64,000 bases of DNA from an uncultured Clostridium sp. GTDB taxonomy: Bacteria > Bacillota > Clostridia > TANB77 > CAG-508. Of this stretch, positions 6,928 to 45,272 are shown piece after piece. Within the stretch, counting starts at the first letter, position 1. Each line of letters begins with the position of its first letter. The stretch spans positions 104,153 to 168,152 of the forward strand of contig CAKNQJ010000001.1 in the NCBI GenBank assembly GCA_930990645.1, in the 5' to 3' direction. A program made the translations under genes and the position numbers. Below the pieces are notes generated by a model that was not told where the DNA came from, searched no databases, and worked only from the letters and a program-made list of their open reading frames with translations.

Positions 6928-6955
6928 AATATCACTCCCATTTTGGTATTTAAAA

Positions 6956-7034
6956 TCCGTTCCATTTTGCTGGCACATATATTTTATCTTCTCCAAGTAT
7001 TCGAATAGAAAATATATGTGCCACGTGGAACTAC
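6956..7034. repeat. 79-bp MITE-like palindromic element, copy A
   Basis: TCCGTTCCATTTTGCTGG-CACATATATTTT-...-AAAATATATGTG-CCACGTGGAACTAC. The internal inverted repeat is a perfect 12 bp; related copies at 33320-33468 and 45037-45115. Confidence 0.8.
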
Positions 7035-7057
7035 TTAGATAAATTATTTATGTGTAA

Positions 7058-7699
7058 CTATTCTACTTTTCCAAATAAATTTAATGGCCAAAATCTAATC
7101 CACACTGTTCCTTCGATTTTTTCTAAAGGAATACAACCAAATGCTCTACAATCTGTAGAATGATCTCTATTATCTCCCATAGCAAATACACAATTTTCTG
7201 GAACAACTAAATCTGAGAATATGCCATTTCCCATAGTTGTTGTGACACCGTCTTGTAAGTATGGCTCATCTAACTCTTCATTATTAACATAAACTTTTCC
7301 ATCTTTAATTTGTACATGGTCACCGGGAAGTCCAATAACTCTCTTGATATAACTTTCTTTGCCAATTTCTAAAACATAATAAACAAATTTGCTAAACCAA
7401 TTTGTAGGCTCATTATTATATCTAGCAATTACATTATTATCAAGATCATCTGCAGACACATATGTTTCAGAAGGTGCCTCAAATGTAATGATGTCGCCAC
7501 GTTCAGGCATTTGATCTGTGGTTCGGCTCCATCTATTTAAAATAAGTCTTTGATTTTGCATTAATGTTGGGTACATAGATGATTGTTTTACAATAGTTGG
7601 AGTTCCTATAAAATATCTTATTAATAATGCTAAAATAAATGCAATTAATATGCATACTATCCATTCTATAATATCTTTTGTTTTATCACGTATGCTCAT
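7058..7699 (-). CDS. lepB: Signal peptidase I
   Basis: N-terminal TM segment; GDNRDHSTDCR box E region. Confidence 0.85.
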   Translation of the reverse strand: MSIRDKTKDIIEWIVCILIAFILALLIRYFIGTPTIVKQSSMYPTLMQNQRLILNRWSRTTDQMPERGDIITFEAPSETYVSADDLDNNVIARYNNEPTNWFSKFVYYVLEIGKESYIKRVIGLPGDHVQIKDGKVYVNNEELDEPYLQDGVTTTMGNGIFSDLVVPENCVFAMGDNRDHSTDCRAFGCIPLEKIEGTVWIRFWPLNLFGKVE

Positions 7700-10370: not shown

Positions 10371-10433
10371 TGTGAAAAAATGAGGCTAAAAACCAGGGAA
10401 AACAAGAAAATGATAATGTAGACGAGGTTGATA

Positions 10434-11541
10434 ATGAAGAGAAAAATTCTAAAAAATGTAGAATGGGGGATATTAATTTGTACTATTATTTTATTGATAA
10501 TAGGACTTGTAGCTTTAACATCAGCAACAAAAAATTCTGATTATGATGAATTAAAAAGACAAATCATGTGGATTGCTATAAGTATCCCTGTAATGATTAT
10601 TATAATTTTTATTGATTATGACTTAATAGCAAAATTAGCACCTGTTCTGTATGGGATAATAATTGCTTTGCTAATAGGAGTTTTATTTACAGAACCAATA
10701 AATGGTGCAACAAGTTGGTTTAACATAGGCTCATTTTCATTACAGCCAGCAGAGTTTGCAAAAATCATATGTATACTTATGCTAGCACTAGTAATGACAA
10801 AAATACAAAAAAGAGGCAGAGACGAAATAAGTAGAGTGCCAAAACTATTATTAGTATTACTAGTATTTGCAGTGCCTACACTTTTAATTATAAAACAACC
10901 AGACTATGGCACAGCACTTGCATTTGTTATGGCATTAATATTTATGTTGTTTGCCGCAGGAATAAAAAAGAGATACATTATAGCATCAATATTATTAGTA
11001 GTTATTGCCGTACCACTACTATATTTCTTTGTATTACCAGAACATGCAAAAACAAGAATAGATGTATATTTAAATCCAGAATTGGATCCAAGAGGAGCAG
11101 GATACAACATAATTCAATCTAAGCTTGCAATAGGAGCAGGAGAATTATTTGGAATGGGATTATTTAAAGGAAATCAAACACAATTAGGTTTCTTATATCC
11201 AAAAACAACTGACTTCATCTTCTCACTTATTGGAGAAGAGATGGGCTTTATTGTAGCAGCAGGAGTAATAATACTATATGTAGTTCTGATTACTAAGGCT
11301 ATATATGTTGCTAAGACTGCAAAAGATGACTTGGGCTCATACATAGCGATGGGAATAGCACGGTGTATTTTTCTTTCATATGGTAGAAAACATCGGAATG
11401 ACAATGGGACTACTTCCAATAACAGGTATACCACTTCCATTTGTAAGTTATGGAGGAAGTTCGCTACTAAGTAACTTTATCATGATAGGAATATTGCTAA
11501 ATATTTCGGGCAGAAGGCAAAAGGCAATTTTTATTGATTAA
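10434..11541 (+). pseudogene. rodA: Rod shape-determining protein RodA (FtsW/RodA/SpoVE family), frameshifted near 11361
   Basis: The frame from 10434 ends at 11474 with a non-homologous tail. The +1 frame from ~11362 encodes the conserved GVFFFHMVENIGMTMGLLPITGIPLPFVSYGGSS to a stop at 11541. Deleting the C at 11361 restores GIAGVFFF. Confidence 0.75.
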
Positions 11542-11830
11542 AGTATTTGTGTGAGTTGTATTTGAAAATTCACATAAGTTATAGAAAAAATTATAATATG
11601 TGCATTGCAAAGTTATATAATAGAAAAATTACACTTATGGCTCGGCTACCTTACGTTCGCTAAGAAATTATATAAATACATCTATGGCCTCCGCCCAAAA
11701 GGATTCGGTTTCCTCCATAGCTGTATTTTAATAATTTCTAACGCTCCTTCAGTCGCATTCGCCATTTCGTATAATTTTTCTATTATATAACTTTGCTAAT
11801 AATTAATAATATAATTGAAGGGAATAAAAA

Positions 11831-12802
11831 ATGTACTTAAAAAAACTAAAAATAGGAAATGTAGAATTACGAAATAACATACTCTTAGCTCCAATGGCAG
11901 GGATAACAGACCTGCCATTTAGATTGATATGCGAAAAATACGGAGCAGGGCTTTGTTGCACAGAAATGATAAGTAGCAAAGGTTTGTATTATAATGACTC
12001 AAAGACTAAGCTCTTTCTAAATTTAAAAGGAGAGCAAAGACCAGTAGCAGCCCAAATATTTGGAAGTGATATAGAAGCATTAAAATACGCAGCAGGCTAT
12101 GTTAGCGATTTTGTGGATATTGTAGATATAAATATGGGCTGCCCTGCACCTAAAATAGTAAAAAATGGAGATGGAAGTAAGCTACTTTTAAATTTAGAAT
12201 TAGTAGAAAAAATAGCAACAGAGGTTGTAAAAGCATCAAAAGTCCCAGTAACAGCAAAAATAAGAAAAGGCTGGGATGCTAACCACATAGTTGCAGTGAA
12301 AACGGCTAAAATACTAGAAAAATCAGGAATATCTGCAATAACAATACATGGAAGAACAAGAGAAGAATACTACTCCGGAAATGCAGATTGGGAAATTATT
12401 AAAAAAGTAAAAGAGACAGTAAATATACCTGTAATAGGAAACGGGGATATAAAGAGTAAAGAAGATGCTTTAAAAATGTTTAAAGAAACAAATGTAGATG
12501 GAATAATGGTAGGAAGAGCTGCAATAGGGAATCCATGGATATTTGAGGAGATAGTAGGTTATCTACAAGGAAAAGAGCAAAGACAAATTACAAAAAGCGA
12601 AAGACTTGAAACAATATTAGAACATATTAATCTGGCAGTAGAAGTAAAAGGAGAAAACATAGCAATAAAAGAAATGCGAAAACATTTAGCATACTATATA
12701 AAGAATACGAAAGATGCAAGTAGATTAAGAGAAAAGATAAACAAAATTGACACAAAAGCAGAATTAATAGATTGTCTAAACGAATACTTTAAAAACATAT
12801 AG
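11831..12802 (+). CDS. dusB: tRNA-dihydrouridine synthase
   Basis: Dus family FMN-binding motifs (LAPMAGITD, DINMGCP). Confidence 0.85.
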   Translation: MYLKKLKIGNVELRNNILLAPMAGITDLPFRLICEKYGAGLCCTEMISSKGLYYNDSKTKLFLNLKGEQRPVAAQIFGSDIEALKYAAGYVSDFVDIVDINMGCPAPKIVKNGDGSKLLLNLELVEKIATEVVKASKVPVTAKIRKGWDANHIVAVKTAKILEKSGISAITIHGRTREEYYSGNADWEIIKKVKETVNIPVIGNGDIKSKEDALKMFKETNVDGIMVGRAAIGNPWIFEEIVGYLQGKEQRQITKSERLETILEHINLAVEVKGENIAIKEMRKHLAYYIKNTKDASRLREKINKIDTKAELIDCLNEYFKNI

Positions 12803-33230: not shown

Positions 33231-33319
33231 GAAATTGACTACATAGTATAAAAAATAATAGGTTATTACTGTTTAGTATGATGTACTTTAAATAATTAAT
33301 AAACTTATTTTTATGCTAA

Positions 33320-33468
33320 GTAGTTCCACGTGGTAAATTTTTTTACAATACAGCCTCACGTGTCACATATATTTTTTACTCGAAAACATGGAGAGTACAA
33401 AATATATGTGACAGTAAGATGAGGCGGAATTTAGATGCTATATATATCTACCAGCAAGATGGAACGGA
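33320..33468. repeat. MITE-like palindromic element, copy B (inverse orientation, 149 bp with extra internal sequence)
   Basis: GTAGTTCCACGTGG...TGTCACATATATTTT...AAAATATATGTGACA...CCAGCAAGATGGAACGGA. Confidence 0.75.
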
Positions 33469-33648
33469 CTTTGCATATCTAGTCTTACACTGAATAGTAA
33501 CAAAAGATTTGTTACTATTCATAGCCTAAATTTAAAAGAATGATTTTACAATTTAAAGATTTTTTTAAAAATATATTGACAATTAATTTAATATGTATTA
33601 TTGTTAGATAAAGTAACTAACCAATGTTTAAGGAGGTGAACTTATACA

Positions 33649-44868: not shown

Positions 44869-45036
44869 AATGTCTCCTTTCATCCGGCGTTCCATTTAAT
44901 TGTATGGAACTATGCTAATGACCTACATAAATTATTATACTATGAATATGTACTTATGTCAATAAACTTATAGATAAAATTTACAATCATTTCCAATGAT
45001 TATTACAATTCACAGATAAAAATAATCTATTAAAAG

Positions 45037-45115
45037 TCCGTTCCATCTTGCTGGTAGATATATATTGTGTTCTCCACGCATTCGAACAAAATATATATCT
45101 ACCACGTGGAACTAC
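45037..45115. repeat. 79-bp MITE-like palindromic element, copy C
   Basis: TCCGTTCCATCTTGCTGG-TAGATATATATT-...-AATATATATCTA-CCACGTGGAACTAC. Confidence 0.8.
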
Positions 45116-45272
45116 AAAGCATAGAAATTAGGTAAAGTAATTCTTTAAAGCATATCATACTGAACAGAAACCAAATAGTGACATTTAAAGTAACTTTTCT
45201 GCGAAAGCAATTGAAAATTCGTTAAAAAAGTGGTAAGATAGAAGGGCAGTTATAAAAAAGGAGAGTAAAAAA

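Follow-up and report, generated by a model that had tools for sequence, protein, structure and literature searches.

The window analysed here is a 64,000-nt stretch of a contig from an uncultured Clostridium sp., in which a short palindromic repeat is found three times. Copy A is located between the lepB stop codon (7058) and holB, copy B between the plsX stop codon (33230) and acpP (33649), and copy C between the members of a divergent gene pair (44895, 45273). An initial annotation had described a MITE-like element with exact common termini, 79 bp long in copies A and C and 149 bp long and inverted in copy B, with perfect inverted repeats inside the copies. We read these sequences at their positions and found them as quoted, and a check of the ORF positions agreed with its claim that all copies are intergenic. 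The terminal word CCACGTGGAACTAC occurs exactly at 7021-7034 (+), 33320-33333 (-) and 45102-45115 (+), and the other terminal word, TCCGTTCCATNTTGCTGG, at 6956-6973 (+), 33451-33468 (-) and 45037-45054 (+). Their chance expectations in the window are 0.08 and 0.06, respectively, and three occurrences of each word were reached in 0 of 100 shuffles of the window. A covariance model, run with filters off, found no further copies in the window, and the three copies contain no ORFs save artefactual extensions. The features are listed in Table 1.

Table 1. Positions of the three repeat copies and of their parts in the window.
Feature	Length	Positions	Strand	Description
Copy A, hairpin core	79 nt	6956-7034	-	GTAG-P1-CG-P2...P2'-GCAAAA-P1'-CGGA; MFE -28.6 kcal/mol, z -5.3; covariance model 94.8 bits
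Copy A, whole insert	119 nt	6939-7057	-	From the alignment of lepB-holB junctions
Copy B, full composite MITE	237 bp	33265-33501	+	TIRs ATTACTGTTTAGT (33265-33277) and ACTGAATAGTAAC (33489-33501)
Copy B, outer hairpin	149 bp	33320-33468	+	P1 GUUCCA:UGGAAC; P2 arms degenerate; inner copy in place of apex
Copy B, inner complete hairpin core		33350-33428	+	MFE -33.1 kcal/mol, z -8.0; covariance model 85.7 bits
Second element, truncated left end		33511-33560	+	GTTACTATTCATAGCC...TTTAAAAGAATGATTTTAC; 9 bp past copy B; compared with left arm of copy C
Copy C, full MITE	170 bp	45002-45171	-	Left repeat GTTTCTGTTCAGT (45171-45159, -); right end of type ATTACAATTCACAG (45002-45015, +)
Copy C, hairpin core	79 nt	45037-45115	-	MFE -31.3 kcal/mol; covariance model 93.4 bits

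The strand that begins with GTAG folds into a single hairpin, consisting of a 6-bp helix P1 (GUUCCA:UGGAAC), an internal loop with CG opposite GCAAGA, a second helix P2, a short P3 and an 11-nt loop. In the window cores P2 is AT-rich, has 15 bp and contains a U·C mismatch, and across the family it ranges from 12 to 18 bp with a variable apex. The folds of the window copies have an MFE of -28 to -33 kcal/mol with z -5 to -8, and the complementary strand folds as well.

The insert of copy A is bounded by the lepB stop codon (7058-7060) and by the RBS and start of holB (GGAGTG 6938-6933, TTG 6927-6925). Its shell is truncated, and the right terminal repeat is unrecognisable. The conserved RBS/start GGAGTGATATTTTG places the true holB start at this TTG and gives a protein of ~298 aa; the expected HolB length is about 298-306 aa. 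The mechanical ORF begins at TTG 6996, and public calls give 315 aa from ATG 6978 inside copy A, so the earlier remark that holB had been wrongly extended into the repeat was borne out. Since the essential holB gene starts 27 nt past the copy A hairpin, transcription must read through copy A. Scans of the elements revealed no promoter or terminator signatures inside them at the three window loci, and candidate outward promoters, read by eye, were inconsistent between subfamilies. An intrinsic terminator was considered and rejected, because no terminator-like sites exist at the three loci, the U-run begins 4 nt past the stem, and transcripts have to continue through copy A.

Copy B is a composite in which a complete second copy is nested. 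The 15-bp inverted repeat that had been assigned to copy B itself belongs to this inner copy, and the TTCGAA core attributed to all copies does not extend to B, whose apex reads TCGAA. The inner P1 is GCCUCA:UGAGGC, with UGU:ACA at the base of P2, and all changes relative to GUUCCA:UGGAAC are compensated. The flanking 8-mers of the composite, AATAGGTT and AAAAGATT, are identical at 6/8 positions, and its right TIR reads GTTACTATTCAGT in reverse complement. Double hairpins of this type, in the same kind of shell, are also found at two loci of the MAG CAMOBD01 (L065, L101), which indicates a subfamily that has propagated rather than a single nesting event. The P1 helices of the inner and outer hairpins are unlike in all composites (GUUCCA/GCCUCA, GUCUCA/GCACCA, GCAUCA/GUCCCA). 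At 33484-33523, the right repeat of copy B and the left repeat of the second element lie tail to head and form the palindrome GAATAGTAAC-N9-GTTACTATTC; shortly after it, and downstream of copy B, comes the conserved promoter of acpP (TTGACA-N17-TATTGT, 33576-33604).

The left and right ends of copy C differ in repeat type, so these ends are chimeric, and its flanking 8-mers match at 5/8 positions. The copy is 97% identical over 139 nt to another locus of CAMOBD01 (L110), and past the hairpin copies B and C share a homologous left shell over 74 nt. Copy C sits between two outward promoter-like sites (44934-44962 and 45211-45239), neither of which is disrupted; the flanks carry a perfect TTGACA-N17-TATAAT on the minus strand and TTGAAA-N17-TAAGAT with TG on the plus strand. 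In the public assembly of the same strain, one contig (L137, ERZ1478606:k87_188097) starts at about window position 45029 and breaks inside copy C. Such a break is what a dispersed repeat would be expected to cause, and short-read MAGs may therefore under-represent MITE copies. For a polymorphism of copy C, the only matches were the strain itself and a contig that breaks off at the repeat.

The words that the initial annotation had named as termini do not end the element. They form the base of the internal hairpin, and the real transposon ends are outer TIRs of the type GTTACTGTTCAGT, located about 55 bp outside one end of the hairpin and about 35 bp outside the other. In many copies this outer inverted repeat, GTTACTGTTCAGT...ACTGAACAGTAAC, lies about 40 nt before GTAG and about 20 nt after CGGA. 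The TIRs of complete elements are of the type GT(T/A)AC-T-N-N-TCAG, and in relatives they match at 12-14/14 positions; further MITE ends are GTAACTACTCAGGC (L093) and GTTAATGTTCAGCC. Directly outside the TIRs we found the target-site duplications that had been proposed as a check. They are perfect over 8 bp in L051 (TATATTAT), L096 (ACTGAAAT), L110 (ATTTATTT), L059 (GATATACT), L093 (ATTAGGAC), L133 (GTAATTTT) and L076 (TAATATTA), the last of which has a related shell around a diverged hairpin without CACGTG/CAGCAAGATG, and they are 7/8 identical in L057. In the window, the match is 6/8 for copy B and 5/8 for copy C, and copy A has none.

One MAG carries the same TIR-bounded unit at separate sites, and copies in this and other MAGs each have their own perfect or near-perfect 8-bp duplication. 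The loci L051, L054, L057, L096 and L116 were considered as orthologous sites, and this was ruled out; they are paralogues within one MAG. Site-specific 8-bp duplications together with paralogues within one MAG are the signature of repeated DDE-type transposition. A search for target duplications at the boundaries of the hairpin core gave no offset above the shuffled null. An 8-bp repeat around the inner copy of L065 (ATTCTTTA) could not be generalised, the boundary search being at null level.

We also searched a genome collection with the pattern CACGTG-N35-65-CAGYAARATG-NNN-CGGA, which recovers all window copies. The scan gave at least 108 loci; among the matches listed, about 80 are true members, and the remainder are GC-rich chance matches. 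All true members among the matches listed come from uncultured Clostridia, Clostridium sp. or Clostridiales MAGs from animal or human guts, several of which contain at least 10-15 copies each. The family comprises at least about 90 copies in at least about 17 Clostridia MAG species, and a covariance model recovered 100 full copies in 0.76 Mb of collected loci. The pattern had 0 matches in viral contigs, and no plasmid or phage sequence matched the full element in BLAST searches. Rfam at the gathering score gave none in the window or in 5 loci, and at E <= 10 it gave generic microRNA-hairpin matches only, far below threshold. Literature matches to the sequence words of the element were parS papers only, and a search on Clostridial MITEs returned nothing relevant.

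Many copies lack the shell and have an intact core, including copy A and the copy between groES and groEL (L030); their spacers are too short for the shell. Intact shell-less cores fit either mobility of the core itself or selection on it. We also looked for genes enclosed by single left or right halves of the hairpin, and deletion remnants were all that this yielded.

The same type of TIR also bounds long-hairpin interiors that are unrelated to the 79-nt core (L133 396-608, L065 781-917, L076 6946-7116 and window 11612-11791), so these MITEs seem to have a palindromic body in general. The example in the window is a 180-bp MITE-like element between the ORFs 10428-11474 and 11831-12802, with perfect 14/14 TIRs (GTTATATAATAGAA/TTCTATTATATAAC) and flanking 8-mers ATTGCAAA/TTTGCTAA that agree at 6/8 positions. 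Its interior is one long hairpin (MFE -35.8 kcal/mol, z -4.6); it has no second copy among the collected sequences and no Rfam match. The L133 element has GTTACAATTCACAG ends, a perfect duplication and a GC-richer structured interior (GGAGTGCTTAAGGTGGGGACCGACAAG...GTTGGGGGCC; MFE -48.8 kcal/mol, z -9.6), which recurs in another MAG (L036 4390-4480) and has no Rfam match.

Insertion polymorphism was found at two of the window junctions. Copy B is absent from the plsX-acpP junction in L001, L002, L005 and L010, where the spacer of 81-188 nt is without any element. At the lepB-holB junction, the lineages L132/L133 (LepB 85% identical to the window) have an empty site with a 17-nt spacer that reads TAA and then TTTTAAGGAGTGAAATTTTG, at the place where the window carries the 119-nt insert of copy A. 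In L128/L131 (LepB 91% identical) the orthologous copy is decayed, with a P1 mismatch, CACATG, TTAGCAAGATG, CAGA and an apex deletion, and its decay proceeds at about the rate of its flanks. In L124/L125/L127 (LepB 93% identical) the junction contains a different MITE of ~165 bp (about 1343-1510) with a perfect 18-bp TIR, ACCTTCTGCCTATAAAAT, a truncated form of which is found in L126. The occurrence of different MITEs and of an empty site at one junction indicates that lepB-holB is an insertion hotspot and that conservation of copy A does not exceed that of its flanks. L128 1343-1420 is also listed with the sister-lineage MITE sites at this junction. The interior hairpin of the sister-lineage MITE (AAGTCCGCGCAGGGA...TCCCGTTGCAGGAC) is present as well in L065 781-917, an element with GTTACTAGATAATG ends and the 8-bp duplication TGTTACAA that is inserted into the terminal repeat of another element. 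The copy number and the presence or absence of copies in related genomes agree with the MITE-like nature proposed at the outset: the elements are non-coding and shorter than 300 bp, they have TIRs and, in relatives, 8-bp duplications, and their copies are dispersed and polymorphic.

The ends of the element and the length of its duplication point to a particular group of insertion sequences. ISDge4 of Deinococcus geothermalis, a member of the ISBst12 group of the IS66 family, encodes a single transposase of 449 aa and has the TIRs GTGACTACTCAGCA / GTAACTGCTCAGCA with a direct repeat of 8 bp (PMC12898284). In the sequence of Geobacillus kaustophilus pHTA426, which we read directly, ISGka4 ends in GTAACTATTCAGCC / GTATCTATTCAGCC with AACTCGTC duplicated on both sides, and its transposase matches PF03050 DDE_Tnp_IS66 and zf-IS66. 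The TIRs of both, GTAACT(A/G)(T/C)TCAG..., resemble the ends GTTACTGTTCAGT, GTTACTATTCAGT and GTAACTACTCAGGC of the MITEs, which have the GTAA(C)T..TCAG type of ISBst12 derivatives, and the 8-bp target duplication is common to both. They differ in that elements of the ISBst12 group are 1.6-1.9 kb long and encode a transposase of ~450-485 aa, whereas the MITEs are 140-240 bp, non-coding and almost all hairpin. A tblastn search with the ISGka4 transposase found no ISBst12-like transposase in the window or in ~0.9 Mb of collected loci, and none of the collected loci contains a long TIR pair enclosing an ORF. From the ends and the 8-bp duplication of ISBst12 type, we infer that such a DDE transposase would mobilise the element in trans.

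Taken together, the three repeats are probably copies of a non-autonomous DNA transposon, a selfish MITE of ISBst12/IS66 type in low-GC gut Clostridia. A complete element of this kind is ~165-175 bp long and consists of the TIRs, a left arm of ~40 bp, the 79-nt palindromic core and a right arm of ~20 bp. Its putative mobiliser would be an ISBst12-type DDE transposase (IS66 family, single ORF) acting in trans, and insertion duplicates 8 bp of AT-rich target. Insertions persist mainly in short spacers just past stop codons, where they are transcribed through, and the DNA palindrome may be kept because it forms hairpins or cruciforms, or because template switching corrects quasi-palindromes. In the window, copy A is then an old copy with a truncated shell, copy B a propagated double-hairpin composite, and copy C a copy with chimeric ends.

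We compared the GTAG strand with the strand of the flanking genes, merging sites with similar flanks. The GTAG strand is antisense to both neighbours at 38 sites and sense to both at 17 (p = 0.006), with 12 sites between divergent and 4 between convergent genes. The MITE reading leaves this 38:17 bias unexplained. In co-directional settings, the element is located ~10-60 nt past the upstream stop codon in either orientation, for example between groES and groEL (L030). The GC skew identifies the plus strand as leading throughout the window, and the GTAG strand is minus in copy A, plus in B and minus in C. Mixed GTAG strands under a uniform leading strand indicate that the orientation in the window does not follow replication.

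The pairing of the core has been kept through massive covariation. In 74 distinct sequences, 97.2% of the cells are standard pairs, compared with 73% in shuffled sequences and 27-43% with slid partners; both sides change in 10/15 pairs, and the covariation score is 0.607 versus 0.159 in shuffles. Across the family, P1 takes many sequences, among them GUUCCA, GCUCCA, GCUUCA, GCACCA, GUCCCA and GCCUCA, and is paired throughout, and P2 and the apex are wholly different between subfamilies. Subfamilies without common stem sequence retain the asymmetric loop CG/GCAAGA and, in P2, a Y·C mismatch. Among 100 covariance-model matches, 15 deviate from the scan pattern by single substitutions at "invariant" loop positions, so the invariance of the loop is partly imposed by that pattern. 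G-U pairs occupy 6/1110 cells in the 74 sequences, and the full P2 stems contain 16 G-U versus 11 A-C mismatches, indicating that neither strand is favoured.

The compensatory changes reported in the initial annotation are therefore real, whereas selection on RNA structure, which it had offered beside a cruciform, is not supported, given the strict Watson-Crick pairing with no strand favoured, the two orientations at 38:17 and the decaying orthologue of copy A. Strict Watson-Crick covariation without a strand signal suggests upkeep of a DNA palindrome, which fits better than selection on RNA. Neither palindrome upkeep nor a transposase that binds double-stranded DNA explains the kept asymmetric loop and Y·C mismatch.

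This loop and mismatch, the shell-less copies, the 38:17 bias and the heterotypic P1 helices of the composites keep alive the reading of a functional hairpin. Counting RNA and single-stranded DNA together, we regard such a hairpin as rather unlikely. In specific terms, the core would be a folded-nucleic-acid module defined by a P1 of free sequence, the loop CG/GCAAGA, the Y·C mismatch and the flanks uAG...CGGAyUUU, and we consider this module unlikely.

The RNA version holds that MITEs carry a functional structured RNA, either a small RNA or a signal for processing or stability in intercistronic regions or 3'-UTRs, such as a site for RNase III or for a binding protein. This would account for the very strong covariation, the folding z of -5 to -8, the unpaired CG/GCAAGA, 5' uAG and 3' CGGAyUUU kept across subfamilies, and the orientation bias. 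The copies are usually transcribed, lying 10-60 nt past stops and inside operons (groES-groEL, lepB-holB), and the inner and outer P1 are always unlike in composites, as expected if mis-pairing must be avoided. However, the two strands fold equally well, G-U pairs are as rare as stated above with the 16:11 ratio favouring no strand, and ~31% of the co-directional copies have the opposite orientation. Each of the three window copies has either the minority orientation or a location between divergent promoters, the orthologue of copy A decays at about the flank rate, the apex is unconserved between subfamilies, and the loop invariance that speaks for RNA comes partly from the scan pattern, with the 15 deviating model matches. 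Even E <= 10 yielded no Rfam match beyond the generic hairpins. A functional RNA seems to us quite unlikely.

Alternatively, the core could be a single-stranded DNA hairpin of the REP/RAYT or IS200/IS605 kind, whose folded form with its conserved 5' (G)TAG would be read by an HUH tyrosine nuclease without recourse to the outer repeats. A conserved 5' nTAG beside an imperfect palindrome, strict Watson-Crick pairing with free stem sequence, the conserved asymmetric loop, mismatch and bulge, intact copies without shell, and the repeated nesting of copies in the apex of others are all consistent with it. Yet full-length copies bear the mark of DDE transposition, namely TIRs with 8-bp duplications, no RAYT or IS200-type gene was seen among the sequences analysed, the core boundaries show no consistent duplication or fixed target, the orientation in the window does not track the replication strand, and a core of 79 nt that is AT-rich is unlike the GC-rich REPs of 20-40 nt. 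We judge this reading very unlikely.

A protein might bind the DNA of the left end around CACGTG, for example ParB at a parS-like site or another regulator at its operator, and the repeat would then be a dispersed regulatory site; we hold this to be highly improbable. GTTCCACGTGGAAC is the parS core of the parS literature, and copy A reads TGTGCCACGTGGAACT, 2 mismatches from parS TGTTNCACGTGNAACA (B and C have 3), but only a single half-site is parS-like, as the P2 arm takes the place of the second one. In other subfamilies GTTCCA gives way to GCTCCA, GCTTCA or GCACCA, the free P1 covariation within one genome is incompatible with sequence-specific recognition of double-stranded DNA, and the copies are scattered and polymorphic. 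The parS-like stretches are located at 7017-7032 (copy A), 33322-33337 and 45098-45113, and P1 + CG + P1' would make a perfect parS core if P2 were removed. Because other subfamilies lose GTT/AAC, the likeness follows from the palindrome G-NNN-CACGTG-NNN-C, of which it is probably a coincidental by-product. As a candidate in its own right, the parS site, a 16-bp palindrome with both half-sites, was rejected on the mismatches given above. An integron attC site (R'' RYYYAAC and R' GTTRRRY at the hairpin base, in cassette arrays) was likewise rejected, as P1 is free in sequence and the copies are scattered and not arrayed.

The MITE described here has counterparts in other bacteria. Correia elements (CREE/NEMIS) of Neisseria and ERIC/IRU of enterobacteria are short, non-coding, TIR-bounded repeats with long hairpins, and like these MITEs they lie between genes or cistrons and are transcribed together with their neighbours. 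Correia elements belong to another lineage and have 26-bp TIRs, TA duplications and an IHF site, none of which occurs here; they are also cut by RNase III. With REP/BIME (RAYT) the family has in common a conserved 5' (G)TAG beside an imperfect palindrome, an extragenic location and many copies. REPs, in contrast, are 20-40 nt long and GC-rich and are without TIRs or duplications, whereas the core here has 79 nt and ~33% GC and lies inside a unit with TIRs and target duplications. Membership in REP/RAYT was therefore rejected: the nTAG is kept, but the core length, the GC content and the shell disagree. RUP, BOX and SPRITE of Streptococcus and Bcr of the Bacillus cereus group are also intergenic repeats or MITEs of Firmicutes with strong predicted hairpins and a modular or composite, nested build. 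They have no sequence similarity to the present element, and the target duplications (TA in RUP) and the presumed mobilising IS families differ. The repeat represents a new family within a well-known class, the MITEs, and not a new kind of system.

If the core were functional after all, the shell-less intact copies and the unlike nested P1 helices would be consequences of that function. In the single-stranded DNA version, IS66/ISBst12 transposition or host factors would read the hairpin, adding a structure-dependent step to a poorly understood IS family, and in the RNA version a new RNA motif would ride MITEs into operon spacers. Were the loop functional, the family would offer a natural covarying set of variants for testing structure-dependent transposition or RNA processing.

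As a selfish MITE, the family explains annotation errors and assembly breaks at the repeat; the called holB has 17 aa in excess, which stem from an ORF that continues into copy A. Insertions recur in short spacers within operons, for example lepB-holB, plsX-acpP and groES-groEL; these are hotspots that different MITEs fill in sister lineages. The repeats define a MITE family of uncultured gut Clostridia that had not been catalogued before, probably tied to the little-studied ISBst12 group of IS66.
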